From the NCBI GenBank assembly GCA_963716565.1, contig OY970318.1:516284-580283 (forward strand): a stretch of 64,000 nt of DNA. Reading direction: 5' to 3'. The notes beneath the pieces are model-generated. The model was not told the origin of the DNA and ran no database searches. It saw only the letters and a program-made list of their open reading frames with translations. This DNA comes from an uncultured Candidatus Saccharibacteria bacterium. Its GTDB lineage: Bacteria; Patescibacteriota; Saccharimonadia; Saccharimonadales; CAIOMD01. Of the stretch, positions 1,232-62,870 are shown piece after piece; within the stretch, counting starts at the first letter, position 1; the number at the start of each line of letters is the position of its first letter. The translations under genes and the position numbers were made by a program.

Positions 1232-3010
1232 TTAAGCGCTATCCGATGCTGCAACTCGGTTTATCTCTGACAAAGTTGTCTTTGCGGTTAAAGCCTTAAG
1301 ATATCCGTCTTGGCGCATTGTTATCATGCCCTGCATCTGCGCCAGATTCTGGATTTCGTTACTGGTTGCCCGCTTAATTATTAAATCTTGAATTTCGTCG
1401 GTGACATTAAAGGCTTCGAACAAACCCAACCTGCCTTTATAGCCACTTGGACTGTTAGGGCTTGGCTTGCCCTTGTACAAAGTATAAGCGTTATCACTCC
1501 TAAGTGGCAAGTCGCCATAGCCTAAATCTTCAACAATTGCCTTTTTATTGGAATCGTCTTTGGGCAGTATATTACCAACAACATCGTTAACAGCCCCAAC
1601 TTCTAATTCTGAAGCCTTGTAGGCCTCTGGATTGCCATCTATGCGCCTCACAAGCCGCTGCCCAATAACAGTCCTAACCGTGCTAGCAATTAAGAATGGC
1701 TCAATTTCAAAATCTAAAAGTCTTGGCAAGATGCCGGCGGCCGAATTGGTGTGCATTGTTGATAGTACCAGATGACCGGTTAAGGCAGCTTGGACTGCTA
1801 GGCTAGCGGTTTCTTTGTCGCGAATTTCGCCAACCATAACTACGTCTGGGTCTTGGCGCAAAATTGACCGTAGACCGCTAGCAAAAGTTAATCCAACTTC
1901 GGTATTAACTTGAATTTGGTTAACGCCAGCAATTTTGTATTCAACTGGGTCTTCAAGAGTAACAATGTTAATCTCATCACTCATAATTTCTTGGACTAAG
2001 GCATACATACTGGTTGTTTTACCAGAGCCAGTTGGGCCCGAGGTCAGGACCATGCCGTTAGAGTGCTTAATGCCATCACGTATAGTTCTAAGGGCACGGC
2101 CAGAATAGCCCATTTCTTCAAGTCTTAAGCTAGTACCACTTTTATCTAGCAATCGTATTACTACTTGCTCACCCCAAACTACCGGAGATATGGCAATACG
2201 CAAGTCTATAGCCGAACCCCCAACCGCAATAGTAAACTGCCCATCTTGCGGAATGCGATGTTCGTCAATTTTTAAACTAGATAAAATCTTTATACGAGAT
2301 ACTAATGGGGCTTCAGTAGCCTTAGGCAACATCATAATCTCTTTTAATACACCGTCGATTCGAGCCCTAATTTTAAGCTTATCTTCTAGTGGCTCAATAT
2401 GAATATCGCTAGCCTTATTTTTGGCCGCATAATCTAATATAGATGTTAATGCCTTGCTGATTGGCGAGTCTTGAACCAAAGTTTGTATAGACTCACTACT
2501 ACTAGATACCGACTGGCCCTCGCCACCTTCTCGTTTGTCCACGGCATCTGCTACGTCTTGGCTGACATCAACTTCGTATTGCCTAAGAACGTTTTCTATT
2601 CCTTCTTCACTGGCTAAATAAACCTTTAGCGATCGATTAATTCTATTAGACAAGAAGTCTACGGCCTGTACATTATCGGCGTCTATCATGGCCACTACCA
2701 AGCGGTTTTGCATTTCGCCCAGCGGGACTGCCATGTATCTAGAGGCAATTTCTTGTGGCAATAACTTGAGTATTTCGGGTTTTATACGAACGTTGAGCAA
2801 ATTAACATACGGCACTTTTGTCACTTGCGATATAGCTTTTGTAAGCTCTTCGTTAGTAATATAACCGCCGCCAATCAGCAAAGAAATAAATGGCTCGCCA
2901 GAAGTTTTGGCCTTTTCTTGAATTTGCTTTAACTCTCCAACGCTGATTAAACCTTTTTGGATTAGTAATTCTTCTACTTGTTTTCTGGTATCTGTTAGTA
3001 AGATGCTCAT
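1232..3010 (-). CDS. pilB: Type IV pilus assembly ATPase PilB (GspE family)
   Basis: 592 aa. N-terminal GspE-N-like region, Walker A GPTGSGKTT and GHLVLSTMHTNSA. Confidence 0.9.
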   Translation of the reverse strand: MSILLTDTRKQVEELLIQKGLISVGELKQIQEKAKTSGEPFISLLIGGGYITNEELTKAISQVTKVPYVNLLNVRIKPEILKLLPQEIASRYMAVPLGEMQNRLVVAMIDADNVQAVDFLSNRINRSLKVYLASEEGIENVLRQYEVDVSQDVADAVDKREGGEGQSVSSSSESIQTLVQDSPISKALTSILDYAAKNKASDIHIEPLEDKLKIRARIDGVLKEIMMLPKATEAPLVSRIKILSSLKIDEHRIPQDGQFTIAVGGSAIDLRIAISPVVWGEQVVIRLLDKSGTSLRLEEMGYSGRALRTIRDGIKHSNGMVLTSGPTGSGKTTSMYALVQEIMSDEINIVTLEDPVEYKIAGVNQIQVNTEVGLTFASGLRSILRQDPDVVMVGEIRDKETASLAVQAALTGHLVLSTMHTNSAAGILPRLLDFEIEPFLIASTVRTVIGQRLVRRIDGNPEAYKASELEVGAVNDVVGNILPKDDSNKKAIVEDLGYGDLPLRSDNAYTLYKGKPSPNSPSGYKGRLGLFEAFNVTDEIQDLIIKRATSNEIQNLAQMQGMITMRQDGYLKALTAKTTLSEINRVAASDSA

Positions 3011-3053
3011 TTGCTAATTTTGTTTAACGCCAAGCTGATAGTTGGCAGATATT

Positions 3054-3296
3054 TTAGTCACTAAGGGCATCCGGGTTATTGTTGCCGCCTATTTGAATGT
3101 CTACCGTTGGGTTTATAGAATTATCATTAAAGTAACGAGTGCTTGGGCTGTTAAACTCAGCACTAATCGGCTCCACTTTTGGCGCTTTTAGGTTATAAGC
3201 TTTGCTGCCACCAAATATTAAACTAGATATCACCATGCTAAATATGCCCGACATGATGGCTATGGCAACTATGACTGTTATGTCTTTCTTTTTCAT
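3054..3296 (-). CDS. Small single-TM protein in the pilus operon (function unknown)
   Basis: 80 aa. It has an N-terminal TM helix (ITVIVAIAIMSGIFSMVISSLIF) and lies between the pilO-like gene and pilB on the same strand. Confidence 0.4.
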   Translation of the reverse strand: MKKKDITVIVAIAIMSGIFSMVISSLIFGGSKAYNLKAPKVEPISAEFNSPSTRYFNDNSINPTVDIQIGGNNNPDALSD

Positions 3297-3305
3297 GGTG
3301 ACTAT

Positions 3306-3995
3306 TTAATTATCTCCTATTATCTGACCGCTCTTACTTACAGTGTACTGTTGGATATCTAATAATTTTTCTGGCTGATAGTAAGTCACTGCCGAAATTT
3401 CTGCTACCATGGCAGTATCAGCCGCCCTAAGCGTAATTGAGGTTATTTCGAATGGCCTAATAGACAATTCGAATCTATCAACCAAGGCCTGGATTGCAGT
3501 CAAGCTACCAGTAACATCAATAGAAAAAGGAATTTCTACGGGCTGTGGATTAATGCTATCATTTTCAGCTTGAGCTTCTTCGTCAATGCCACTTATAGAC
3601 CTTAGGGTCATCCCGCTGTCACGCACTATGGCCTCAATGCTTGCCGTTAACGCCGGGAAGTCATATTTGCTAGGTAGGGCATCGAGTATTATTTTGGGGT
3701 TGTTATCGGCCGTACCAATTACCGATTCCGCAGAGCTCTCGAATTGCCCATAAGCTTCAACTATGGAATCCGTGGCGCCAACATTAACTTTAAGTTGCTT
3801 ATTAGCCTCATCTCTTAGGCCGATTACCTTACCCTGATAAGACATCTGCTTAGAAAGAGCAGCTATCGCAAATATCGAAAAGATCACCACTGCAGTAGTA
3901 ACTGCCGCCGCATATAGAATAATGGAGTTATTCTTGTCTACAAGCAGATGCTTGGCTGATGTTTTTACTTTGGACGACGTAGTGGTAATTTTCAT
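3306..3995 (-). CDS. pilO: PilO-like pilus assembly protein
   Basis: 229 aa. One N-terminal TM helix followed by an extracytoplasmic domain, located directly after pilN. The call rests on architecture and context. Confidence 0.5.
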   Translation of the reverse strand: MKITTTSSKVKTSAKHLLVDKNNSIILYAAAVTTAVVIFSIFAIAALSKQMSYQGKVIGLRDEANKQLKVNVGATDSIVEAYGQFESSAESVIGTADNNPKIILDALPSKYDFPALTASIEAIVRDSGMTLRSISGIDEEAQAENDSINPQPVEIPFSIDVTGSLTAIQALVDRFELSIRPFEITSITLRAADTAMVAEISAVTYYQPEKLLDIQQYTVSKSGQIIGDN

Positions 3996-3999
3996 TATA

Positions 4000-4710
4000 T
4001 TAAAGCTCCTGCGTAGTATTTACATCTTCGCTCTGATTGGTTTCTGGTTGTGCTTGGAATAGTAAATCTGGTTGTTCGGTTTGTGAGCGAGTAGATATAA
4101 TGTTTGGAATTATTAAAGTTACCTGCTCGTAGTCGCTGCTAAATATGTTACTGTCAAAAAATAGAGAGATGGAATAGCTATAATTTGTTGTTGCCTTGCT
4201 AAAAGTATTCAGCACTACCGAAGAAAAAGCCGGCAATTGTTCGTCTGACTGATCGGTGCTATATGCTGTGAATTTTAAAGTATCAACAAACTTATTAATT
4301 AACTCTAACGTCTTTGCTGAGCCATTAATCACAACCGAAGAATCTTCATATTCTAGTGTTATATCGCCAACATAAACATCTATAGGAGTTATCTGTGGCA
4401 TAAAGTCAAACAAACGGCTAGTAACCGGCTTTTGGTCATGCAAATCAGTTAAACTATCTAGTTGATTTTGAATAGTAAGGATTTTATTTAGGCCATTAAC
4501 ACTTTGTAGTTCAGAGCTGCTAGCCACAATTTCTTTATCTAGTTTATTCAGTGTGACTTTTTGGGAGCCATAGGCAATACCAACTAATATCACGACTATG
4601 GCAATAGCCACTCCGCAAATAGCAGTAGCAGTCATTATTGTTAGGTGCTTGGTTCGCTCAGTAGAAATAAACTTGGTTTTAACGTCTGGTAATAAATTCA
4701 GCTGAATCAT
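4000..4710 (-). CDS. pilN: PilN-like pilus assembly protein
   Basis: 236 aa. It starts MIQLNLLPD (the PilN NLLP signature), has a single TM helix and follows pilM. Confidence 0.65.
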   Translation of the reverse strand: MIQLNLLPDVKTKFISTERTKHLTIMTATAICGVAIAIVVILVGIAYGSQKVTLNKLDKEIVASSSELQSVNGLNKILTIQNQLDSLTDLHDQKPVTSRLFDFMPQITPIDVYVGDITLEYEDSSVVINGSAKTLELINKFVDTLKFTAYSTDQSDEQLPAFSSVVLNTFSKATTNYSYSISLFFDSNIFSSDYEQVTLIIPNIISTRSQTEQPDLLFQAQPETNQSEDVNTTQEL

Positions 4711-4717
4711 TTTTTGC

Positions 4718-5759
4718 CTACAGTACCCTCTCCGCTAAGCCCGCCGCTACACTAAAATGATTAGACACAGCCAGTAGCTCATTCTGGTTTTCGGGTGGGA
4801 AGGATACATTGCGCCAAGCATTACCAATTTCGACATTAATGCCAAATTTATTAGCCAGATAAAGAGGAAATTCCGGCAAAACAGAAGCGCCACCAGTAAC
4901 AATAATTTTTTCTAAGTTAGAGCCCTGGTAACGCGTTTGATAGAACTTAATAGATTTTTCTATTTCCGAAACTAGGCCGTCAACCGTGTTAATGATAGCG
5001 TTATATATTTGGCCTTCAAGTTTATCTTGGCTTAAGCCAAACTTATAAACAAATTGTTCAGCTTGTTTTTCGTCTATATTAAGATTTTGGACTGCAGACT
5101 TAATAATCGCGCTATTGCCTACCGAAATATAGCGCATTAATCTTGGGCCACCATTTACACAAATAACTAAGTCGGTTCCGTACATCCCCATGTCTATAGC
5201 CATCTGTGGGCTTACGGCGTCCGTGGCAATAACTGCTCTGGCCATAGCTAGTGGCTCCGGCTCGAAAGCAATAACATTTAGGCCGATTCCCTCTAGCATA
5301 TCTAACCGTTGTTCGATGTATTCATTCGGTACACTAGATAGAAGAATTTCTACTTTATTTGGGCCAGCGGGAGAATCACCTAAATAAGCCCAATCAATTT
5401 TACTTTCGATCAATTGGAGTTGGAATTAAAGTATCAGCCTGGTAGTGGATAGTTTTATCTAGTTCTGACTTACTGAGCTTTTCTATATCAACCACCGTGC
5501 TGAATACCTTCTGAGCCGGTAAACCAACAGCTACATTCTTGGTGGTCACTTTTAATTGGCCCACCAATTCCCTGATGATATTAGCTACTTTTTGCTGGTC
5601 AGCTTTAGCGTCACTTAAGACCAGTTTTGATTCTATTGGTACTAATCCGTATTTTTCCAGTTCTTTAACTGGCCCACCACCTCTTAGTTGTACCAAGCGG
5701 ATGGCCGAAGTTCCAATATCTAATCCAAAAAAGTCCTTGACGCCACTTAGGACACCCAT
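4718..5759 (-). pseudogene. pilM: PilM (actin-like ATPase of the pilus alignment complex), split into 119-aa and 231-aa ORFs by a +1 frame change near 5408
   Basis: The N-terminal ORF 5400-5759 (FFGLDIGTSAIRLVQL, ...LIPTPIDRK*) and the C-terminal ORF 4718-5413 (TTG, IESKIDWAYLG...) overlap by 14 nt. Together they make 350 aa, the normal PilM length. Removing the C of GATCGAA gives a continuous PTPIDESKIDWAYLG. Confidence 0.6.
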
Positions 5760-5816
5760 GCCTTAAATTGTAGCATAAGCTTTATGTAATCAAGAAGTTA
5801 TTTATTGGATTTGGCA

Positions 5817-8096
5817 TTAAAATACAGGCGGCAGGCTTTTGATGCTATCGATACCGTTATCGGTAATAGAGGGAGCATCGCCGCCCATCCATCTACTCAG
5901 CAACATTTCTGGGCTAAAGATAAATTCTTCGGCGGGGATATTAGTGGCAAGCGTACCACCTGTACGCCAGTATTTGATGTTGCCCAAAGCTTCAAAGGCG
6001 CCGTAGACCTTTAGCGTGCCAGTGCAACTGCTATAGCCTGGGAAAGAACCGTCCGAGGAACAGGTATATATATTACCCGTAGCAAAGTAAAAGCCATCTA
6101 GCTGAGTGACACTAGGGCTAATGTAGATATTACCGCTAACTATTAAACGATAGCTGGGTATGTTAGATCTTTCGGTGCCCCAGTCACTTGCATATGTAAT
6201 ATTGCCGTTTATGAAAGCATCGCCGTTAACGTAAGTTGTTTTGTGCTCACCAATGTCTATGGTATCGCTACTTATAGTAAGGTCACCTGCAGCTGGAGGA
6301 CTAGGTAGGGCATAATATTCTTCAGCAAAGTAATCGGTGCAAGCTCCAGTATCACCCCAGTCGGCACCGAATGTGCCACTGGTGTTGGCAAAAGTTAAAC
6401 GCTTAGGGTTGGTCGAGTTGCTAGTAGCGCCCGAGAAGAAGCCTTTTTTGTCGTCTATCCCGTTACCATTTATTTGATCGTATACAAACAAGGCATATTG
6501 GGAGCTAGAGCCAATGTAGGCAGTTTCGGCATTGTTCTTTCTGGCCCAGGTATAAACACTGCCTCCGCCAGCATTACAAAAGTTTACGTCGAGACCTTTG
6601 AACTTAACTATGGGGCGAGCAATAATACGAGCACAAGCCATAGATGGGTTATTGCTAACAGTTGCCGTACCGGCGTCTGTTATATAAAGATATTGGCAGA
6701 TTTGGGAGCCAATAGATACACTTGTTTCGGCGACAGTTAAAGCGTCGACGCCAATAGAAGTATGGCCCCTGGAAGTGACACTAACGGAGCCAGCGCCAAT
6801 AGATATGTTTGTATAGCCGGTTGTAGGCCAGCCGGTTTCTGGGCTAGTATTAGAATCATAGACTTTTTGCCTGACTTGATAGTTAGCCGTGAAATTAGAA
6901 GTGAAATTCTCTACGGATATCCCGTGACTAAAATTCGGCAAATCACCTGCATCATTTGGCTCAACTGCAGTTTTATCGACGCTAGATTGAGGCTCAACGT
7001 CGGCAGTGACAACAAAGTGAGCCGTTAGAGTGACGGGCTCGGCAGGCATATCATACGAAAAATTGTCATCCATAGCTCCTGTATTATCGGCGCTTCTTGA
7101 ACTAGTCCAGTTAGTAAATCTATAACCCTTTTTTTTGGTAAAGCTAACGTCAGGCCAATCCGTATCTAGATAGGTACCGCCACCGCTAATGCTAGTAACA
7201 GCAGCAGATGGATCTGCTACTACCGTTAATGTGTACTTGCTTCTTTTAAAATGAGCCGTTAGAGTAACGTCCTGAGCAGGCATATCATAGTAAAAAAGGT
7301 TATCTTTATGGTCAACATCATCGGCGGCTCTTGAACTACTCCAGTAATCAAAATCCCAGCCTGTATTTTTCCATGCCCCAACTTGAGGCCAGTCGTCGTC
7401 GCTAAAATTGCCTCCACCGGTAGCGCTACCACCTCCGGCTGGGTCCGCCTCTGTAGTTAATAAGTATTGCTGTGAAGTTCTCTCGTAACAAAACCAGGCT
7501 GTACTACCCCAAGTGACGCCCGTTACACCATTATCCGCGATGGCTTTATCAAACGCCGCCTTGACACTGCTACTTCTGTATATTGTGTTGCTAACAAGAT
7601 TGTAATCACCGCTGGGATCGAAACTGGTCAAACTAGCGCTATTAGAACCATCACTATTATATAGATGTTTATAAATTGCCAGTTTCGCGCTTGGATCATA
7701 TCCTCTGCCTATTTCACTGCTAATATTATATATAAAGTATCCGTCGGCAAAAGAACAGGCATTGTCGAGCATATTCTTGAAGTTCTGAAGTGCCGCCGTA
7801 GTTATCTCCAAAGAGCCTCGGTGGTAGGTGCCGCCGATTTTACCCCAAATTCCATGGCTACCAACCGCACGATCTCTAGTCATATAAATCCAATACTCTT
7901 CGCAGCCGGTAGCTGGATAGTATAGAGTATGGCCGCTGCAGTTAGAGCCACCATCACCACCTCCGTCCGAGTCACCCGACGCGAAATCAGCCTTTGTATT
8001 ATTGGTTAGACTTAATAGCGGGACAACAAGGAGTGCAAGAATAAACCCACTTGCTCGAATCGGATGCCAAAACGTGTTCGCTGCTCTTACTACCAA
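5817..8096 (-). CDS. Large secreted or surface protein with tandem InlB-B-repeat-like modules
   Basis: 759 aa. TTG start 2 nt after the upstream stop. Hydrophobic N-terminal signal or anchor (ASGFILALLVVPLLSL). Two tandem 78-aa repeats each end in DMPA..VTLTAHF, visible as a DNA repeat at 7017-7057 versus 7251-7290. The C-terminal half is rich in Gly, Ser and Thr. Confidence 0.6.
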   Translation of the reverse strand: MVVRAANTFWHPIRASGFILALLVVPLLSLTNNTKADFASGDSDGGGDGGSNCSGHTLYYPATGCEEYWIYMTRDRAVGSHGIWGKIGGTYHRGSLEITTAALQNFKNMLDNACSFADGYFIYNISSEIGRGYDPSAKLAIYKHLYNSDGSNSASLTSFDPSGDYNLVSNTIYRSSSVKAAFDKAIADNGVTGVTWGSTAWFCYERTSQQYLLTTEADPAGGGSATGGGNFSDDDWPQVGAWKNTGWDFDYWSSSRAADDVDHKDNLFYYDMPAQDVTLTAHFKRSKYTLTVVADPSAAVTSISGGGTYLDTDWPDVSFTKKKGYRFTNWTSSRSADNTGAMDDNFSYDMPAEPVTLTAHFVVTADVEPQSSVDKTAVEPNDAGDLPNFSHGISVENFTSNFTANYQVRQKVYDSNTSPETGWPTTGYTNISIGAGSVSVTSRGHTSIGVDALTVAETSVSIGSQICQYLYITDAGTATVSNNPSMACARIIARPIVKFKGLDVNFCNAGGGSVYTWARKNNAETAYIGSSSQYALFVYDQINGNGIDDKKGFFSGATSNSTNPKRLTFANTSGTFGADWGDTGACTDYFAEEYYALPSPPAAGDLTISSDTIDIGEHKTTYVNGDAFINGNITYASDWGTERSNIPSYRLIVSGNIYISPSVTQLDGFYFATGNIYTCSSDGSFPGYSSCTGTLKVYGAFEALGNIKYWRTGGTLATNIPAEEFIFSPEMLLSRWMGGDAPSITDNGIDSIKSLPPVF

Positions 8097-29647: not shown

Positions 29648-29692
29648 CTTTCTATTATCTAACGTCCAACGTCTATCGTCTAATGTCTATTT
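29648..29692. repeat. Family A element A2 (dut-HAD spacer)
   Basis: The minus strand reads AAATAGACATTAGACGATAGACGTTGGACGTTAGATAATAGAAAG. Its first TAG is the dut stop codon. Confidence 0.8.
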
Positions 29693-33222: not shown

Positions 33223-33864
33223 CTAATTAAGGCTCTTTACTAGCTGCTGAGCGCGGTCTAGAAATTCTTGTTTGTCATTGCCGTTGTTTTCAATTGTGAT
33301 AGTAGCATGAGCTTTTACGTAGCTAGTGTTCATCTGAACTTCTTCTGGGATGCCCGGCTGAGGGTTATACTGCAGATTCTCGTGAGCATTAAACTCTTCC
33401 AGGCTAATCGGCTTCTCGCCCGCCCTAAGGTTGGCTAGCTTTCTGTTGTGCCGTACAACATCACTGGCCTCAACCCAAATAAGCTCACCGCCATGCCCTA
33501 AAATATAGCTAACTTCTATTGGGGCACGGATGCTGAACATTACCAACCCCTTATGATGGTCTTTTACTTTTTCAAATTTTTCTAAAGCGATCTTTAGGGC
33601 AAAGTCCGAGCCATTGGTACTACGTAACCAGTTTGACGTTTCGGTCATATTAGCAACAGAGGCTGGGTCTGAGTCATTTTGGTGTCTTTTGCGAGATTCT
33701 TCACGCACGATATCACCTAGTGAGACCCCGAACCAACCATCTTGCATGAACAGTTCAGCCAGCGTATCTTTGCCGCTGCGAGTTAGCCCACCAATCCCAA
33801 CTAGACGTTGGACGTTAGACGTTGGAAGTTGGGGAATTGTTTGTTTCTTTCTATCGTCTATCAT
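33223..33864 (-). CDS. P-loop kinase, dNMP/NMP-kinase-like
   Basis: 213 aa. Walker A GIGGLTRSGKDT. The ATG and the first 20 codons or so lie inside repeat element A3. Confidence 0.45.
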   Translation of the reverse strand: MIDDRKKQTIPQLPTSNVQRLVGIGGLTRSGKDTLAELFMQDGWFGVSLGDIVREESRKRHQNDSDPASVANMTETSNWLRSTNGSDFALKIALEKFEKVKDHHKGLVMFSIRAPIEVSYILGHGGELIWVEASDVVRHNRKLANLRAGEKPISLEEFNAHENLQYNPQPGIPEEVQMNTSYVKAHATITIENNGNDKQEFLDRAQQLVKSLN

Positions 33865-42981: not shown

Positions 42982-43072
42982 TGGCGGAGAGGAAGGGATT
43001 CGAACCCTTGATGCCCTTGCGAGCATACCCGCTTTCCAAGCGAGCGCACTAGACCAACTATGCGACCTCTCC
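42982..43072 (-). tRNA. tRNA-Ser (anticodon GGA), CCA encoded
   Basis: The minus strand reads GGAGAGGTCGCATAGTTGGTCTAGTGCGCTCGCTTGGAAAGCGGGTATGCTCGCAAGGGCATCAAGGGTTCGAATCCCTTCCTCTCCGCCA. The acceptor stem GGAGAGG/CCTCTCC has 7 bp. The anticodon loop TTGGAAA gives anticodon GGA. There is a long variable arm (ATGCTC-GCAA-GGGCAT) and a T arm AAGGG-TTCGAAT-CCCTT. Confidence 0.85.
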
Positions 43073-49140: not shown

Positions 49141-49761
49141 ATGTTCGGTCAAAATCAAGACGATCAGCAAGCGGTGGTACCGCCACCAGATAATATGGCC
49201 AGCGCGCCTGCTAATCCTATGGCCGTAGTGCCAGAACCGCCAATGCCCGGTGATCCAAATATTGTTAGGCCATATACGGCTAGTTTGGCAGAATTAGAGC
49301 CCGAGGTTCAGCCTATTTCGCCAGCGCCTCAAGCAGACGATTTAGCTATACCAAATGATATTAAAGACGAAGATGTAGCGCCAATGCCGGTTTCTGAGCC
49401 AGCAGTTCAGCCAGTTGCACCACAAACTACCGACGAAGAAGATGATGAACCAGAAGCAGCCTTTTCTAAAGATGGCGGTACTTATAAATCCGATTCGCAA
49501 GATGACGATAGGCCAACCACGGATACAGATTTAGATGAATTAAAACGCAAGGCTCTAGAAGCTTTGTCGCCATTAGTTGATGAGCTCGATCAAACCCCGG
49601 AAGAAAAATTCCACACCACTATGATGATGGTTCAGGCCGCAGACAATAAAGATTTGCTACCAAAAGCTTACGAAGCAGCTCAAGCTATAGATGACGACAA
49701 AGTCAAAGCCCAGGCTTTACTAGACGTTGTTAACGAAATCAACTACTTTTCTCAGAATTAG
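49141..49761 (+). CDS. Acidic Pro-rich hypothetical protein
   Basis: 206 aa. SD AAGGGGGTGGA. The N-terminal 130 aa or so are Pro/Asp/Glu-rich and the C-terminal 70 aa or so are helical. Confidence 0.45.
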   Translation: MFGQNQDDQQAVVPPPDNMASAPANPMAVVPEPPMPGDPNIVRPYTASLAELEPEVQPISPAPQADDLAIPNDIKDEDVAPMPVSEPAVQPVAPQTTDEEDDEPEAAFSKDGGTYKSDSQDDDRPTTDTDLDELKRKALEALSPLVDELDQTPEEKFHTTMMMVQAADNKDLLPKAYEAAQAIDDDKVKAQALLDVVNEINYFSQN

Positions 49762-49866
49762 ATGTTAGATATTAGACGTTAGACGTTAGAAATATCGAAA
49801 GTTATTAATTAAAATTAGCTCCCCGAATGGGAGCTAATTTGCTTAGTATCTATCGTCCAGCGTCTA
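49759..49866. repeat. Family A element A4 (convergent gene pair, flanks the terminator hairpin)
   Basis: The left arm is TAGATGTTAGATATTAGACGTTAGACGTTAGAAA. The right arm is TAGTATCTATCGTCCAGCGTCTA. The outermost TAG and CTA triplets are the stop codons of the two convergent ORFs. Confidence 0.8.
49812..49840. terminator. Bidirectional intrinsic terminator between convergent genes
   Basis: AAATTAGCTCCC-CGAAT-GGGAGCTAATTT is a perfect 12-bp stem. An A-run and a T-run flank it, so a U-tract follows the stem on either strand. Confidence 0.7.
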
Positions 49867-53692: not shown

Positions 53693-53759
53693 AGCACTCT
53701 ATTGTAGAGCATTTTGGTCTGTAATAAAAAAGTGGCAGGTATGACAGCATTATTATGTA

Positions 53760-53788
53760 TTGTCAATCTTTTCATTTAGGTGTATAAC
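53760..53788 (+). promoter_or_regulatory. Putative promoter P1 of island cassette 1
   Basis: TTGTCA-17 nt-TATAAC in the AT-rich spacer, about 90 nt upstream of the GTG at 53881. Confidence 0.45.
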
Positions 53789-53880
53789 ATAATTTATCTC
53801 GCTAAAGGGGTACGCCCTAATAGCAGACGCACCGCCAAGCTGGGGAGCTTGGCAAAACCGATCGAAAGGGGAAACCGACC

Positions 53881-54417
53881 GTGTGCAAACCAACAGGCGC
53901 AAGATGGTCAGACAATGGAGTGGCAGTAAGGACCGACCCCGAGAAGTACGGCCTGAATCGCGAACAGGCTATCGGGCTCGCCACGAACGTCCTGAAACTC
54001 CCACTCGTAGACCAGTTGCCTGAGGGCGACGAGGCCTGGTGCTACATCAGGGATGAGCACTTCGGTGGCAAACCCACCGAAAGAGCAGCACAGGAAGTAG
54101 AACAGAGTCTGGCAGCTCTGTTCGGCAAGGTGCATGGGAAAACCCATGACCTAGTGGTGTTCGAGAACGACACCAATGCATGCAGGGTGAAGCTGTCTTC
54201 GGTCAGTACTATCACTGCTGACAGCCGAGAGGTCATCGCGAGAGCAGTACACCGAGTCAAGGGCGTCGGCCTAATACGCATACGCGAAGGCAACATCTTC
54301 GCGTGGACGGAGAACGAAGCTGACGCGGCCAACCCCGACATCATGAGCGCCATCAGGAGCGCCGTCAGGGCCAACATGCCACTGGAAGCCTGCGTAGAGA
54401 TCGCGAACCAACCCTGA
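53881..54417 (+). CDS. Island ORF1, orphan 178-aa protein
   Basis: GTG start 8 nt after the SD GAAAGGGGA (53864-53872). GC-rich codons and a balanced, globular-looking composition. No motif I recognise. Confidence 0.55.
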   Translation: MCKPTGARWSDNGVAVRTDPEKYGLNREQAIGLATNVLKLPLVDQLPEGDEAWCYIRDEHFGGKPTERAAQEVEQSLAALFGKVHGKTHDLVVFENDTNACRVKLSSVSTITADSREVIARAVHRVKGVGLIRIREGNIFAWTENEADAANPDIMSAIRSAVRANMPLEACVEIANQP

Positions 54418-54493
54418 CCCTTTCGACACGTCCGAGTGACCATCGTGGCTACCACGTAGCATAGCTGGCCCCTTAGTCACTCAATATCCAAGT

Positions 54494-54522
54494 CCTGGGC
54501 GCCCCCAAAAGGGGTGCCCAGG
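54494..54522 (+). terminator. GC-rich stem-loop after island ORF1
   Basis: CCTGGGCGCCCC-CAAAA-GGGGTGCCCAGG (12 bp with one G-U pair). No clear U-tract follows, so its role as a terminator is uncertain. Confidence 0.4.
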
Positions 54523-54577
54523 ACGGTCGTATAAACTTTAAGCCACAATTTTGCATTACAGACAAGATGATTACATC

Positions 54578-54606
54578 TTGTTTTTTTATTTACTTTATTG
54601 TATAAT
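54578..54606 (+). promoter_or_regulatory. Putative promoter P2 of island cassette 2
   Basis: TTGTTT-17 nt-TATAAT (preceded by TG) in the AT-rich spacer. Confidence 0.5.
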
Positions 54607-54691
54607 ACTGCCCAATGATAGGGAGCATCTGCTCTCTTGAATTGTTCCGTGCCGAGCTGGGGAGCTTGGCAAGATCTAGAAAGGGGATACG

Positions 54692-55123
54692 GTGGCACAT
54701 CCAAGGATAGATTCCGGAGATGCACGAACAAAGGTACATCATTGTCGAGCCTCAAGGCCGGCAGAGGGTGGAGCCCTAAACGCCAGCAGGATGCAGACCG
54801 GCAGAGCCATGAAGCCACTACCGGCATCGTTGCATCCCGAAGAAGTGGTCAGCCGGCTAGATGAAGTCTGTGGGGGCAATCTGTCGGTGATCTTGGACGA
54901 TGGTAGCCAGGTAGAGCTCAAGTGCAAGGCGGCTACTGCTTCCGTCCGAGACAAGCTGTACGTATGCATAGAGTTTGCGGCCGAAGACTGCAAGCTGGAT
55001 CATCGTCGGCGCTGTTTCGACAAGGTCCTCAGTATCATCGAGGGCGTCATGGACGAACTTGGGGTAGACGTCGTGCTCAAGCAATACGAGCAAGAGGCCG
55101 AAGCTTCATCCCGGCCATCATAG
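54692..55123 (+). CDS. Island ORF2, orphan 143-aa protein (start uncertain)
   Basis: GTG 4 nt after the SD GAAAGGGGA (54679-54687), with a leader homologous to ORF1's. The first 39 aa or so are Arg-rich and atypical. Alternative ATG starts are at 54791 and 54809. Confidence 0.45.
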   Translation: MAHPRIDSGDARTKVHHCRASRPAEGGALNASRMQTGRAMKPLPASLHPEEVVSRLDEVCGGNLSVILDDGSQVELKCKAATASVRDKLYVCIEFAAEDCKLDHRRRCFDKVLSIIEGVMDELGVDVVLKQYEQEAEASSRPS

Positions 55124-55251
55124 GCCTTACCCTTTTCTAGAGCGTCACTGAGGTTTCTTGTGTGGCTTGAGGTCGGTGCTGGTATACGCGATATCAGCTT
55201 TCCCCGCTAACCTCTTAGCCCTAGTCAGAACATCTCACACGCCTTTCCGCT

Positions 55252-55305
55252 GAGCCCGCGGGCCTTCTCTACCACAGAGAGGGCCTCGGGCTCGAATTAT
55301 TTTTA
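55252..55305 (+). terminator. Intrinsic terminator of island cassette 2
   Basis: GAGCCCGCGGGCCTTCTCT-ACCAC-AGAGAGGGCCTCGGGCTC followed by GAATTATTTTT. Confidence 0.6.
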
Positions 55306-55424
55306 GCCTTATTTTGATTATTCTTGATTCTTTCTAAAGATATATGCAATTATTTAGTATCTCTAGGCAGTTCCTAGGGAAAGCACAATCTTTGTGCTGC
55401 ACATCAACATCGAAGGGAGTGCAA

Positions 55425-55769
55425 GTGGCACAGACCAAAAGAAGGCCTAAGCGATCGTCCGTCAAGCAGTGTGGCTCAGAGGTAACTCACATAGAGATGC
55501 CCCTGGGCGAGAAGGTATCATCTAAGCACGTCGCGGACATACTCCGCCAGTGCTTAGAAGACAACCCAATCGCTGAGCTCAGCCAACACGGTATCAGGCC
55601 AAAGGTCAAGCCCTTGAGCAACAAGATCTTGGTGATCCTAAGTCACCCCATCTCGAGTAAGCGCTTGGTCGACACGGTTAGGAACCGATTGCAGATGATA
55701 ATCGACGACGCCGTGGCCCAGATCAAGCTCGAAGCTACGCAGCAAAGCGCCATCCAGGCAACGGCGTAG
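55425..55769 (+). CDS. Island ORF3, orphan 114-aa protein
   Basis: I prefer the GTG at 55425, 5 nt after the SD GAAGGGAG (55412-55419). The ORF-track ATG at 55344 lies in the AT-rich promoter spacer. Basic N-terminus AQTKRRPKRSS. Confidence 0.5.
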   Translation: MAQTKRRPKRSSVKQCGSEVTHIEMPLGEKVSSKHVADILRQCLEDNPIAELSQHGIRPKVKPLSNKILVILSHPISSKRLVDTVRNRLQMIIDDAVAQIKLEATQQSAIQATA

Positions 55770-55791
55770 CCAGCCTCCCTCCGTGCACCAA

Positions 55792-55824
55792 CCCGGCGCC
55801 CCTATCGCAAACAGGGGCGCCGGG
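55792..55824 (+). terminator. GC-rich stem-loop after island ORF3
   Basis: CCCGGCGCCCC-TATCGCAAACA-GGGGCGCCGGG, a perfect 11-bp stem. It belongs to a block conserved with the ORF4 terminator. Confidence 0.5.
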
Positions 55825-55848
55825 CCCCTACCATTTAGCCTAAAATAT

Positions 55849-55877
55849 TTGACATTCGTTAATCAAAATTGTACAAA
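55849..55877 (+). promoter_or_regulatory. Putative promoter P4 of island cassette 4
   Basis: TTGACA-17 nt-TACAAA (preceded by TG). Confidence 0.45.
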
Positions 55878-55930
55878 ATATACATCTTGAGTTTTTAGCC
55901 AAGCGAACATCGAGCGGAAGGAGAGCTGCC

Positions 55931-56500
55931 GTGCCCGCCAATAGGTCGTTTACGATCGAACAACAAGGTCCATCGAAGGAGATCTGTCTAACCCTTCACG
56001 GTGATCTTCCTGGCAATCAGAGCGCCTGCAGACAGCTGGCCTCGCGGCTGCGAGGAGGAGAGATGAAGGCGCTTCTTACAGGAGTGAATCTAGACGGCGG
56101 CATCATTACGCTTAAACCCGTACCTGGGGCCGACACCGGCAGGCTGATCATCCAGACCAACAAGATCGCCAACGAGTGGCGCAAGGAGTTCTTTGGAGAT
56201 CAGAAGTACAAGGTCTACACGCAAGAAGGATCGAACACGATCATACTTGAGATCGCCGAGGCCACTCGCAAGAACCTGGGGCCTAGCAGCCTCGAAAGGC
56301 ACTACGGTGAGCTCGTTGTGGCTCTGAAGGGGAGACGGCAATACGCTACCTCTGCCATCAGCGATGTCACTCGCCTTAGGCACACCATCTTCGTAAACGC
56401 TTATCCTGGCCACCTTGAGCAGGTTCGCCAGGAAGTCGTCGAAACAGCGAAGGTTTGGCAATCCCAGTATTTCGGCGACAAACAGTACGTCCAGCTCTGA
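55931..56500 (+). CDS. Island ORF4, orphan 189-aa protein with internal duplication
   Basis: GTG 7 nt after the SD GGAAGGAG (55916-55923). Two halves of about 95 aa end in ANEWRKEFFGDQKYKVY and AKVWQSQYFGDKQYVQL. Confidence 0.55.
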   Translation: MPANRSFTIEQQGPSKEICLTLHGDLPGNQSACRQLASRLRGGEMKALLTGVNLDGGIITLKPVPGADTGRLIIQTNKIANEWRKEFFGDQKYKVYTQEGSNTIILEIAEATRKNLGPSSLERHYGELVVALKGRRQYATSAISDVTRLRHTIFVNAYPGHLEQVRQEVVETAKVWQSQYFGDKQYVQL

Positions 56501-56516
56501 CGGACTCAAGCACCAA

Positions 56517-56549
56517 CCCGGCCCCCTACTAGCTACTGGGGGCGCCGGG
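56517..56549 (+). terminator. GC-rich stem-loop after island ORF4 (right edge of island)
   Basis: CCCGGCCCCC-TACTAGCTACT-GGGGGCGCCGGG. It is homologous to the hairpin at 55792-55824. Confidence 0.5.
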
Positions 56550-56575
56550 CCCCCAACTTTAATAATAAGTTTATT

Positions 56576-56612
56576 TATCTAACATCCAACGTCTAATATC
56601 TATCGTCTATTT
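56576..56612. repeat. Family A element A5 (murE 3' end, island border)
   Basis: The minus strand reads AAATAGACGATAGATATTAGACGTTGGATGTTAGATA. murE reads AAT AGA CGA TAG and stops at the second TAG. Confidence 0.8.
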
Positions 56613-57886
56613 AGCAGTTCCCTGGCGACTTTTCTTTCGTCCCAGGGCATTTTTTTACCACCCATATTACGATAATCTTGATGCCCCATACCGGTAAGCA
56701 AAATCACATCACCCTCTTTGGCGGCTTTAAAAGCGGCTTTAATAGCCTCGTAGCGATCGGCAATTTCTACGTATTTATTCTTGCCACCTGACTTTTCTAT
56801 GCCCTCTCTTACGGCCGTTCGTATAACCTCGCCATCTTCGGTATAGGTTTCGTCGTCGGTTAAATAAACCATATCGGCTAATTTGGCGGCTATTTCGCCC
56901 ATAATTGGCCTTTTTGATTTGTCCCTATCGCCAGTGGCTCCAAAGACAATGCTAAGGTGCCCTTTTGTTAGCCCCTTAAGGGCCTTTAGAGTCCTTTCTA
57001 TGGCATCTGGGGTGTAACCGTAGTCTACGAGCACTGTAAAATCTTGGCCGCAGTCTACGGGCTCTAAACGGCCTGGCACAACTTTGACGTTGGCTACTCC
57101 TAAAGCAATTTGCTGGGGCTTTAGCCCGGCCGTCTGGCCAACTACCACTGCCATGGCCACGTTATAAGCGTTAAAATCGCCCACTAATTTAGTTGACACC
57201 CTTACAACTCCGTCGGTACTTATCAGCTTAAAAGAGGTGCCCTTGGGTTCAACTTTTAGTTCCTTTATCTGATGAGTGGCTTTGGCCTGGCCAATACTTT
57301 TTAGTTTAGTTTCTACCCTTTCGGCAAAATAGCTGTACCAATCGTCGTCGGCATTTAAAATTACTGTTTGCGGCTTAAAATCGGTGATTAACTTGGCTTT
57401 GGCGGCAGCATAATTTTCCATGGTTTTGTGATAATCCAGATGATCTTGGCTTAAATTAGTAACAGCGGCAATTTTTACAGGCACACCATATATACGAAAT
57501 TGATCGAGTGCATGGCTAGTAACTTCCAAAATAATCCAGTCAGCACGGGCCTTTTTGGCTTTTTTAAAAAAACTCTGCACCGACCAAGCGCTAGCTACAG
57601 TCATATGGGTGCGATTAAGCTTATTCACTCCGTTAATCTCGGTAAAAGCGGTGGTATAAACAGCTGTTTTGCAGCCCGCTGCCTTAAAAATTTCGTTTAT
57701 AAAGGCACAAGTTGTAGTTTTACCGTTGGTGCCTGTAACGGCAATAACGTTCATGCCCTTGGCCGGATATAAATTGACAAGATTTGCAGTTTTAGCCTTA
57801 CTCAAGCGACTAAAGTTCTCTATCTGGCGCATCTTTGATGGCGGAATCAATTTACGAATTATCTTCTTAACTTTACTCATTAGCAT
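56600..57886 (-). CDS. murE: Mur ligase, MurE-like (UDP-MurNAc-tripeptide synthetase)
   Basis: 428 aa. VIAVTGTNGKTTT, and a C-terminal domain with LLTGMGHQDY...PWDERKVARELL. The N-terminal domain is short. It could be another Mur-family member. Confidence 0.75.
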   Translation of the reverse strand: MLMSKVKKIIRKLIPPSKMRQIENFSRLSKAKTANLVNLYPAKGMNVIAVTGTNGKTTTCAFINEIFKAAGCKTAVYTTAFTEINGVNKLNRTHMTVASAWSVQSFFKKAKKARADWIILEVTSHALDQFRIYGVPVKIAAVTNLSQDHLDYHKTMENYAAAKAKLITDFKPQTVILNADDDWYSYFAERVETKLKSIGQAKATHQIKELKVEPKGTSFKLISTDGVVRVSTKLVGDFNAYNVAMAVVVGQTAGLKPQQIALGVANVKVVPGRLEPVDCGQDFTVLVDYGYTPDAIERTLKALKGLTKGHLSIVFGATGDRDKSKRPIMGEIAAKLADMVYLTDDETYTEDGEVIRTAVREGIEKSGGKNKYVEIADRYEAIKAAFKAAKEGDVILLTGMGHQDYRNMGGKKMPWDERKVARELLNRR

Positions 57887-61916: not shown

Positions 61917-62870
61917 CTACGGCTCAAAATTTTGGACATCAATGGCGTTTCTCATCTCGTAGGAGTGATTGATGTTATCGCTACGATGTACTATTTCCAT
62001 ATGGAGAGGATTAGCACAAGGCCTAAAACCGCATACGTGATTCAATTCTAGATGTCTTGGTGGAAGTGATCTGCCCGTTGCCACCCACGCCACCCTATGA
62101 GCCAAGGCATCACCACGGTGGCTAAAGCCCCTCATGGTTATTCTTGGATAAAGCCGTCCGTAACCATCAACCTGCGAGTTAAAACCATCTAGTCGAGTGT
62201 AATAAGATCGCACCGGCCAACAGCCAGTATGCTCATCGATTGTTATTTTAGAAACGCTATTTGCCGTTAAGGCCCCTGTTTTTTCGCTCTCATAAGGGTG
62301 GCAAGCCCTCTGCAGCTTCCTTAATTCTTCAATTGATTCTTCAATGCTGGGCAGAATACTGCCCCAAGCAGTTTGGATCCTGCCGTCTGGTAATGTTTTA
62401 AATAGGCGCTCATCTGGCTCGAGTAGTTCCCATCGATTTCTTAATCTAGGAGTAAAGTCATAATGCCTAGGATTCAAACAATTAACACCATCACACAATT
62501 GAATCTGCTGCTTAACTGCTAGCGTAGCTAGGTTCAGAACTCCACGGGCATCGTATTCTGCGATTCCCCATAACGTTTCGGTGTGTTCGCTATCATTCAT
62601 CCCGACATCTGGCATCCAGCAGCCAGTATCTTCATTTAGTTCGCAAGACTCTAAAGAGTTGAAGCCTGGCCTGTTTACCCCTATTATGGCCTGTTTTGCC
62701 AGGTTCTTAAAAATGCCCAACTCTTTGGCGGCGACCTCCATAGGAGGCAACCATAAATCATCTTTGCTCTTTAAAAAATCCTCGATTTTAAAACCGGTTA
62801 CTGGCAAATAATGTGAATATCCGACTCCAGAACGAGTAAGAGAGGGGTGCAAAGACTCCTTTAAGATCAT
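61917..62870 (-). CDS. Tandem HNH_3-like endonuclease-domain protein
   Basis: 317 aa. The C-terminal module is DEHTGCWPV...AHRVAW...LELNHVCGFRPCANPLHMEIVHRSDNINHS. An upstream degenerate copy reads NEDTGCWMPD...CDGVNCLNPRHYDF. Confidence 0.6.
   Translation of the reverse strand: MILKESLHPSLTRSGVGYSHYLPVTGFKIEDFLKSKDDLWLPPMEVAAKELGIFKNLAKQAIIGVNRPGFNSLESCELNEDTGCWMPDVGMNDSEHTETLWGIAEYDARGVLNLATLAVKQQIQLCDGVNCLNPRHYDFTPRLRNRWELLEPDERLFKTLPDGRIQTAWGSILPSIEESIEELRKLQRACHPYESEKTGALTANSVSKITIDEHTGCWPVRSYYTRLDGFNSQVDGYGRLYPRITMRGFSHRGDALAHRVAWVATGRSLPPRHLELNHVCGFRPCANPLHMEIVHRSDNINHSYEMRNAIDVQNFEP

Follow-up and report, generated by a model that had tools for sequence, protein, structure and literature searches.

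Hotspots of accessory and defence genes lying between core genes have been described in the pangenomes of E. coli and Pseudomonas. Among smaller units, integron cassettes normally carry no promoter, and polymorphic-toxin and interbacterial-defence clusters contain arrays of orphan immunity or antitoxin-like small genes. Structured non-coding RNAs account for many of the G+C islands of AT-rich genomes, and phage morons, as described by Hendrix and colleagues, are autonomous promoter-gene-terminator units of atypical composition between phage genes. Here we analysed a 2.8-kb block of four small open reading frames (ORFs) that lies between the genes for a phosphohexomutase (PGM) and a Mur ligase in the chromosome of an uncultured Candidatus Saccharibacteria bacterium (GenBank assembly GCA_963716565.1, contig OY970318.1), using a stretch of 64,000 nucleotides (positions 516,284 to 580,283; hereafter the window). 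The block is a real accessory islet. We hold it to be about an even call that the islet occupies a variable slot shared across the clade, in which imported coding bodies rich in third-position G+C (GC3) are expressed from resident, re-used signals.

The window, a segment of a Saccharibacteria (TM7) chromosome, has a mean G+C of 43.9% (0.439, sd 0.037). In 300-nt windows, G+C was 0.55-0.59 inside 53.85-56.55 kb and 0.37-0.50 in both flanks, and the block supplied the top 6 and 8 of the 10 highest-G+C 500-nt windows of all 64 kb. The first-pass annotation, which had been made from the letters of the sequence, reported an abrupt switch in base composition, four plus-strand ORFs, and long spurious ORFs on both strands, and all of these are borne out. 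The features of the block, including predicted promoters, Shine-Dalgarno sequences (SD) and hairpins, are as follows.

53760-53788, plus strand: promoter P1 of cassette 1, TTGTCA-17-TATAAC, with GGTG upstream of the -10.
53834-53872, plus strand: leader of cassette 1, an 8-bp hairpin with a GGGG loop (53834-53853) followed by the SD GAAAGGGGA (53864-53872).
53881-54417, plus strand: ORF1, 178 aa, GTG start, an acidic soluble ORFan with in-frame periodicity over its full length, GC3 0.68, a singleton cluster.
54492-54524, plus strand: 3' GC hairpin of cassette 1 with a 14-bp stem; a second hairpin with a T-run lies at 54560-54583.
54578-54606, plus strand: promoter of cassette 2, TTGTTT-17-TATAAT with a TG extension, a diverged copy of P1.
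54651-54687, plus strand: leader of cassette 2, the cassette-1 hairpin with one A-to-G change (G-U pair kept), then the SD GAAAGGGGA.
54692-55123, plus strand: ORF2, an acidic ORFan of uncertain start, 143 aa if counted from the shell GTG.
55251-55294, plus strand: 3' GC hairpin of cassette 2, ~19 bp, then a U-rich tail.
55412-55419, plus strand: SD GAAGGGAG of cassette 3, in a context, GAAGGGAGTGCAAGTG, that resembles AAAGGAAGTGCAAGTG of the related locus L028.
55425-55769, plus strand: ORF3, 114 aa, GTG start, a basic (pI 9.9) soluble ORFan with the strongest periodicity of the four.
55785-55835, plus strand: terminator block of cassette 3, with a 12-bp perfect GC hairpin (55792-55824), homologous to the cassette-4 block.
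55845-55877, plus strand: promoter P2 of cassette 4, ATATTTGACA-17-TACAAA.
55916-55923, plus strand: SD GGAAGGAG of cassette 4.
55931-56500, plus strand: ORF4, 189 aa, GTG start, a basic soluble ORFan with the internal repeat NEWRKEFFGDQKY / KVWQSQYFGDKQY.
56144-56209 and 56431-56497, within ORF4: the repeat copies IIQTNKIANEWRKEFFGDQKY / VVETAKVWQSQYFGDKQY, residues 72-93 and 167-188.
56510-56560, plus strand: terminator block of cassette 4, with its hairpin at 56517-56549.

The four ORFs are written in a GC3-rich codon dialect that is foreign to this genome. Their GC3 was 0.60-0.73, compared with 0.41 ± 0.04 in 47 native genes (z = 4.2-7.2), and synonymous choices were reversed between island and native genes (ATC, 0.73 versus 0.21; GTC, 0.41 versus 0.09; AAG, 0.79 versus 0.33; TTA, 0.03 versus 0.30). 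Together with the G+C profile, these values uphold the compositional foreignness claimed at first pass. When 58 genes were ranked by C-ending NNY codons, the island ORFs took the top four places, with ORF3 at 100%. GroEL stood at 0.43, which is ordinary for the genome, indicating that the bias is not of the ordinary expression-linked kind. Translational optimisation was rejected as its cause, since GroEL and all other genes lie far from the island values. The combined share of AGG and AGA among arginine codons was 0.46 in the island ORFs at 56% G+C, unlike the usage of high-GC Actinobacteria.

We conclude that the four ORFs are protein-coding genes, with caveats for the start of ORF2 and the N-terminal codons of ORF4. 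A sliding periodicity test gave strong signal in exactly the ORF frames and was flat on GC-rich non-coding units from relatives. Purines occupied codon position 1 at 0.62-0.72 in the island ORFs (0.66 in native genes), the amino-acid composition was native-like, and G+C followed the pattern GC1 > GC2 < GC3. Each of the four frames is intact, extending from the SD almost to the hairpin; a stop-free frame over the full body survived in only 0.15-4% of dinucleotide shuffles per unit, so that the joint chance of four intact frames, as the product of the four shuffle fractions, is ~3e-8. The source record and an independent gene caller (Logan) agreed on ORF1, ORF3 (GTG at 55425) and ORF4. ORF2 has 78 aa in the source record and 143 aa in the Logan gene call; its N-terminal part is low-complexity and non-periodic, and its start is uncertain because coding periodicity begins only near 54760-54800. 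Candidate starts are GTG 54692 and ATG 54791 or 54809. The first ~35 codons of ORF4 are likewise weak in coding periodicity. All four ORFs start with GTG as opposed to the ATG of 40 of the 47 other genes (first-start rule), a contrast already remarked on at first pass.

To place the block in its clade, we surveyed 105 Saccharibacteria loci holding 1,476 ORFs; motif scans covered 157 loci and the window. The closest species-representative genomes are Candidatus Saccharibacteria/Saccharimonadales metagenome-assembled genomes with at most 78% identity in the PGM protein, and a metagenome scan for relatives closer than these found none. Loci L081/L082 and L083 come from the same organisms as L001 and L002 (L083 being L002). 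The gene order tsaD-Mur ligase-gap-PGM-groES was kept in ~10 genomes, with gaps of 1.1-4.5 kb that differed in content, and none of these genomes carried ORF1-4; no relative carries these sequences, and the block is lineage-specific as well as accessory, the latter as proposed at first pass. GC3-outlier ORFs numbered 9 of 1,476 in the 105 loci, and 8 of the 9 lay in the Mur-ligase-PGM interval. L001, L002, L010, L028, L048 and L053 each had, beside PGM or a further gene, gene X, a GC3-rich ORF (125-206 aa) in the same antiparallel orientation. Slot contents also include FemAB-like, arginase-like and amidinotransferase-like genes (labelled by eye, the FemAB of L053 being a Pfam match). The relative synonymous codon usage (RSCU) of slot genes correlated among themselves (r = 0.55-0.69) as against -0.24 to 0.08 with their own hosts, and its details differed between slot genes, which makes a single donor unlikely. 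Since the same interval collects GC3-outlier genes across the clade, the block is not a one-off insertion.

The interior DNA of the slot could not be aligned between genomes, whereas the flanks and P1 aligned. L010 and L028, with 71% PGM identity and 50% Mur-ligase identity, have homologous slot ORFs (31% identity, E = 1e-21). The pairs window-L001, window-L002 and L001-L002 are 71-77% identical in PGM and 60-66% in the Mur ligase, yet apart from a marginal match between ORF3 and its L002 counterpart their slot ORFs showed no similarity by BLAST, phmmer, profile search or permutation. Because these closer genomes share no slot ORF while L010 and L028 do, the sequence comparison favours turnover of coding bodies over simple fast divergence. 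The first-pass proposal of horizontally acquired cargo holds for its foreign composition and lineage specificity and needs revising where it implied a single event and wholly imported units, as part of the shells appears to be resident.

Several further features of the slot were observed in relatives. Gene X (180-276 aa, host composition, no Pfam match) lies directly upstream of PGM and divergent from the GC-rich ORF, always on the plus strand, in L001 (7887-8717), L002 (9167-9970), L010 (9328-9918), L028 (9393-9935) and L053 (9359-9919). It is homologous between L001 and L002 and between L010 and L028, and is absent from the equivalent position of the window, where ORF1 abuts PGM. The slot-side Mur ligase (56600-57886 in the window; compare L006, L021, L028 and L048) is 45-64% identical in some relatives and ~35-37% in others, and L028 and L048 are 83% identical in this protein and only 72% in PGM; in some members of the clade the gene beside the slot may be another Mur-ligase paralogue; alternatively, the histories of the two flanks may differ. 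The L053 interval spans 9.7 kb and includes, at 1635-6517, a GC-rich block (0.55-0.66) of ORFs on the plus strand, with a 631-aa HATPase_c_3 (GHKL) protein (E = 1e-8) and two weak LmuB/SMC-like ORFs (E = 4e-5 to 1e-3), content that is possibly defence-related.

Between the GC-rich ORF and the Mur ligase, L001 (6350-7236, minus strand) and L002 (7665-8485, minus strand) carry GC-rich units that have no coding periodicity, promoter-like and terminator-like ends, and no Rfam match. They folded at z = -7.3 and about -10 to -11 in L001, where the segment forms three long imperfect hairpins, and at -4.9 and -5.2 in L002. These units may be novel structured RNAs or palindromic elements.

The first-pass annotation had described the block as self-contained units, each with a sigma70-like promoter, a strong purine SD and a GC-rich stem-loop after the ORF, and had noted that the flanks of the units are homologous in pairs while the ORFs differ. 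The SDs are present as described (GAAAGGGGA twice, GAAGGGAG and GGAAGGAG), and every unit ends in a GC hairpin of 12-19 bp with a folding energy of roughly -24 to -35 kcal/mol; the 118-nt 3' region of cassette 1 folds at z = -5.9. In each unit an AT-rich, promoter-like spacer precedes the leader, the strong SD and the GTG, and the coding body that follows has ~100-190 codons. The pairing also stands: the shells are conserved, the cargo inside them is unrelated. The leader hairpin, the SD and a diverged promoter block (~60% identical by hand count on the alignment) are common to cassettes 1 and 2. The leader hairpin GCCRAGCTGGGGAGCTTGGCAA occurs twice against 0 expected, and the 22-nt hairpin block of cassette 1 recurs only at 54651-54672 (0 expected), with 1 position differing. 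Cassettes 3 and 4 share a 51-nt terminator block and SD-proximal sequence. An 18-mer of the leader was absent from the first 80 loci searched and from IMG/VR, and among the 157 loci only chance sites with 3 mismatches were found.

The promoters fared less evenly: the hexamers are there and two of the promoters are conserved in relatives, but such sites show no excess over chance. The P1 block, TTGTCAAT...AGGTGTATAAC, is conserved at the corresponding place in L002 and, less strongly, in L001. The exact P2 pattern was found only in the window and in L002 among the 157 loci and the window, with one 1-mismatch site in L057, and the P2 block (TAGCCTA..ATATTTGACA...) aligns with L002. It is this conservation of P1 and P2, and not the statistics of the sites, that supports the predicted promoters. 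As P1 and P2 are orthologous to L002 sequence (P1 also to L001), the alignments indicate expression signals that are native rather than imported, at least part of the predicted set being resident and duplicated within the islet.

By sequence, the products of the four ORFs had no recognisable relatives. ORF1, ORF2 and ORF4 matched only themselves among 5.8 billion clusters, and ORF3 formed a singleton cluster. Searches of all four ORFs against Pfam, NCBIfam, PHROGs and PADLOC returned nothing credible, with no PHROG match at E < 0.01 for the island ORFs. ORF1 and ORF4 had no match among PDB sequences or in phage genomes (tblastn), and IMG/VR scans with ORF1, ORF3 and ORF4 were empty. A higher-GC host or its phage, the donor suggested at first pass, thus finds no backing in phage genomes or IMG/VR. 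One apparent IMG/VR match, L161, proved to be no more than the 9-mer used in the scan, NEWRKEFFG, in a small membrane protein that is otherwise unrelated, and was set aside. An exhaustive HMMER search with ORF4 (1.84 billion representatives) returned only cadherin/Big_9 (1393 aa) and Ig-repeat (673 aa) proteins, which we rejected as repeat-inflated, the scores being summed over up to 10 near-identical repeat stretches at 24-33% identity. Foldseek against the PDB with the better AlphaFold2 model gave only E >= 0.066 and template-modelling (TM) scores <= 0.30, an uninformative outcome. With the sequence and family searches empty, the earlier statement that the ORFs lack a recognisable motif is upheld, and on these searches all four proteins are effective ORFans, new families without annotation.

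The four proteins are soluble, without a hydrophobic segment; those of ORF1 and ORF2 are acidic and those of ORF3 and ORF4 basic. ORF4 contains an internal repeat of ~20 residues (z = 6.5, permutation test), which suggests a tandem two-module protein. It was the only similarity supported in permutation tests of 36 pairs. Phmmer of the slot proteins against 9,685 ORFs gave no cross matches, and a profile from the true homologue pair L010/L028 recovered nothing further. A shared beta-alpha-beta-beta-alpha pattern and a W/Y-x-R/H-x-x-F-F/E-x-x-D/Q motif, spotted by eye in ORF1, ORF4 and their L001/L002 counterparts, were unsupported. ORF3 and its L002 counterpart reached p ~0.001 uncorrected and ~0.04 corrected, a similarity that we regard as suggestive only.

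The block is not an assembly chimera. Two independently assembled Logan contigs from other read sets, seen in 2 samples, cover both junctions: one runs groES'-PGM-ORF1-ORF2-ORF3' and the other ORF3'-ORF4-Mur ligase-tsaD'. The Logan results name the run ERR12035938. With PGM linked to ORF1-3 in one contig and ORF4 linked to the Mur ligase in the other, the junctions exist outside the source assembly, which counters the chimera that the first-pass annotation wished to exclude. The Logan assembly breaks inside ORF3, where 55560-55694 is covered by neither contig, the junctions being unaffected. The break is close to a palindrome at 55616-55637, and GAGCAACAAGATC, a family of 13-mers, is met again at 55958 and 56155. 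Foreign reads inserted as a chimera through an assembly or binning error would account for the abrupt composition switch and for the interruption of the independent assembly within ORF3. It is scarcely credible, given the same joins in independent contigs from 2 samples, a source contig of 799 kb, and a promoter, P1, that is orthologous to a promoter in relatives.

In the explanation that we prefer, an accessory islet in a variable slot, coding bodies would enter from a GC-richer gene pool, supplied by mobile elements or by other cells living in the same community, and would replace older bodies by recombination, for which exchange at the level of the shells is one possible route. New bodies would then be expressed from promoters and translation starts that are resident and have been re-used or duplicated. 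The 5' and 3' hairpins may stabilise monocistronic mRNAs, and the 3' hairpins would terminate transcription. All four products are predicted to be small cytoplasmic proteins, soluble, with two acidic and two basic members. Such fast turnover points to a probable function in conflict or in dealings with partners, for example as immunity, anti-defence or host-interaction factors.

Several observations weigh against this explanation. No donor of the coding bodies was identified. No recombinase domain was found within ~8 kb of the block, so that a mechanism of exchange is not visible, and the borders carry no direct repeats longer than 8 nt, no attC site and no tRNA (the sole tRNA of the window is at 42982-43072). 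The first-pass annotation had likewise seen no integrase, transposase, tRNA or border direct repeat, as the recombinase, tRNA and repeat scans now confirm. PADLOC gave 0 families for the four ORFs at E <= 1, leaving a conflict role with no defence match behind it. AlphaFold2 single-sequence models were of low confidence (predicted local distance difference test, pLDDT, 51.5 for ORF4 and 40.6 for a second model). A generic consensus scan missed the quoted promoters and found 1 promoter-like site against 2.4 expected. The nearest other genome is 77-78% identical in PGM, which places all comparisons above strain level. Finally, the conservation of the shells, the constant orientation, the ORF sizes (~125-190 aa) and the dialect shared across species would also fit a fast-evolving resident family.

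Such a family is the alternative that we take most seriously, as possible although not probable. It supposes that one ancestral gene beside PGM was duplicated to four and that the proteins diverged past recognition under diversifying selection, with GC3 held locally, for instance by selection for stable mRNA or by GC-biased gene conversion at a recombination-prone site, while the regulatory elements stayed conserved. Consistent with this, conservation across species extends to P1, P2 and the SD-start contexts; the slot genes keep one strand, position and size class in 6-7 genomes, and the dialect is shared whatever the GC3 of the host. The slot ORFs of L010 and L028 are true homologues at just 31% identity, the ORF3-L002 similarity, marginal as it is (p ~0.001 uncorrected), points the same way, and the upstream conservation of cassettes 1 and 2 is patchy and limited to promoter, hairpin and SD, as in old duplicates under purifying selection. 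It does not easily explain, however, why genomes closer than L010 and L028 have no detectable ORF similarity, or how a 22-nt leader differing at 1 position adjoins ORFs that share no DNA similarity. A fast-evolving gene in a 44% G+C genome should moreover drift to low GC3 and not to 0.60-0.73, and the first 25-35 codons of ORF2 and ORF4 after the shell GTG are non-periodic, as at a fusion junction.

That same low-complexity, non-periodic N-terminal part of ORF2, along with the foreign composition, the want of homologues, the low AlphaFold2 confidence and the ORF-less GC-rich units of relatives, could also be read as non-functional debris, remnants of a degraded mobile element or prophage fragment that is being lost. 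We consider this unlikely: four frames are intact from SD to hairpin (joint chance ~3e-8), every unit retains its start and a strong SD, the vicinity holds no gene or fragment of a mobile element, and 2.8 kb of junk would rarely be retained in a streamlined 0.8-Mb genome. If instead the block encoded GC-rich structured non-coding RNAs, its ORFs would be spurious. As wholes, unit 1 (z = -5.5) and unit 4 (z = -2.7) do fold more stably than their shuffles, and the GC-rich non-coding units that L001 and L002 carry in this position show extreme structure (z = -5 to -11). The coding sequences alone, however, fold at z = -1.5 to -3.2, overlapping native-gene controls (+0.6 to -3.1), so the excess stability of whole units comes from the terminal hairpins. 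Rfam gave nothing at the gathering threshold and two chance-level matches only at E <= 10, with no family recognised, and the in-frame periodicity, native-like amino acids and full-length ORFs make an RNA-only block very improbable. An integrase-less integron cassette array (CALIN) would share with the block co-oriented small ORFs, each followed by an imperfect hairpin, and variable cargo; but no RYYYAAC...GTTRRRY core pairs were found on either strand of 53693-56600 (0, against 0.31 in shuffles), the hairpins are near-perfect GC stems, and every unit has its own promoter spacer. A classical island is countered by the missing integrase, tRNA and direct repeats. Both forms of this reading are largely refuted, and we leave them only a very slight chance.

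A bolder form of the slot explanation, which we think improbable, is that the interval works as a recombinase-independent gene-capture platform. Fixed shell sockets (promoter, 5' hairpin leader, SD-GTG and 3' hairpin) would receive swapped GC3-rich bodies by homologous or hairpin-mediated recombination, with an integron-like logic. If true, such a platform would supply an epibiont with a fast-changing repertoire of small proteins for its dealings with hosts, phages or competitors.

The surroundings of the block are otherwise those of a housekeeping region, with PGI, a hypothetical gene, GroEL, GroES and PGM to its left and the Mur ligase, TsaD and ValRS to its right. Two nearby ORFs, at 49141-49761 (plus strand, 206 aa) and 61917-62870 (minus strand, 317 aa), had no Pfam match at E <= 1e-5 and are of genome-typical composition, unlike the island ORFs. 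The 17-nt motif ATCTAACGTCCAACGTC, which contains a tandem (C/T)AACGTC repeat, has 5 sites within 3 mismatches in the window against 0.06 expected (29657-29673, 33804-33820, 49775-49791, 49848-49864 and 56577-56593). By their coordinates the sites are apparently intergenic, several just beyond gene 3' ends, and the motif could be regulator-binding or termination-associated. It is the "family A repeat" that the first-pass annotation placed at the right border; it is indeed there, at 56577-56593, but with five copies in the window it is not an island boundary. Full-text literature searches returned no work dealing with this locus or with the sample accession.

Saccharibacteria are host-dependent bacteria with tiny genomes, and any genes subject to quick turnover in a genome of this kind are prime candidates for the interface with hosts, phages or competitors. 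Because the slot can be located from its conserved flanks and promoters, it would offer a practical handle for cataloguing this repertoire in metagenomes, and it could be used to ask whether incoming genes re-use resident expression signals. If the genes are silent debris, the finding shrinks to a small remnant of foreign DNA.

Compared with integron arrays and CALINs, the islet has the same tandem, co-oriented, unrelated small ORFs, each with a hairpin, and the same variable cargo on a fixed platform; unlike them it has no attC cores or integrase, carries its own predicted promoters, and ends its units in terminator-like hairpins. It shares with classical genomic islands an atypical base composition and codon usage and absence from relatives, but not a tRNA site, direct repeats or mobility genes. 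Arrays of immunity or antitoxin-like genes resemble it in their small, soluble, highly variable proteins, often of atypical composition, although here no Pfam Imm, antitoxin or PADLOC match was found and no toxin gene is adjacent, so that the likeness is no more than a functional analogy. The ORFan genes of the Candidate Phyla Radiation (CPR) are likewise small and without database homologues; the islet ORFs differ in being strong codon-usage outliers as well, clustered and sharing shells.

Parallels are also found in morons and in core-gene hotspots. The units have a predicted moron-like layout, each with its own promoter-like spacer, a terminator hairpin and a composition different from the surroundings, the promoters being supported only by the cross-species conservation of P1 and P2 and not by the statistics of the sites. 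In contrast to morons, the islet lies among chromosomal housekeeping genes and not in a prophage, shows no phage homology, and has control regions that appear partly native. Like the core-gene hotspots, it has conserved housekeeping flanks around content that is non-homologous among relatives, atypical composition, and an enrichment of outliers at one interval (8 of 9 GC3 outliers), and in the relative L053 this interval holds GHKL-ATPase and weak LmuB-like ORFs. It departs from them in its tiny size (2.8 kb), in its lack of mobility genes, in a cargo of ORFan small proteins only, and in resident promoters and starts that are apparently re-used and conserved across species. By analogy, then, the locus would behave as a small islet of flexible content, assembled from moron-like units at a core-gene hotspot.

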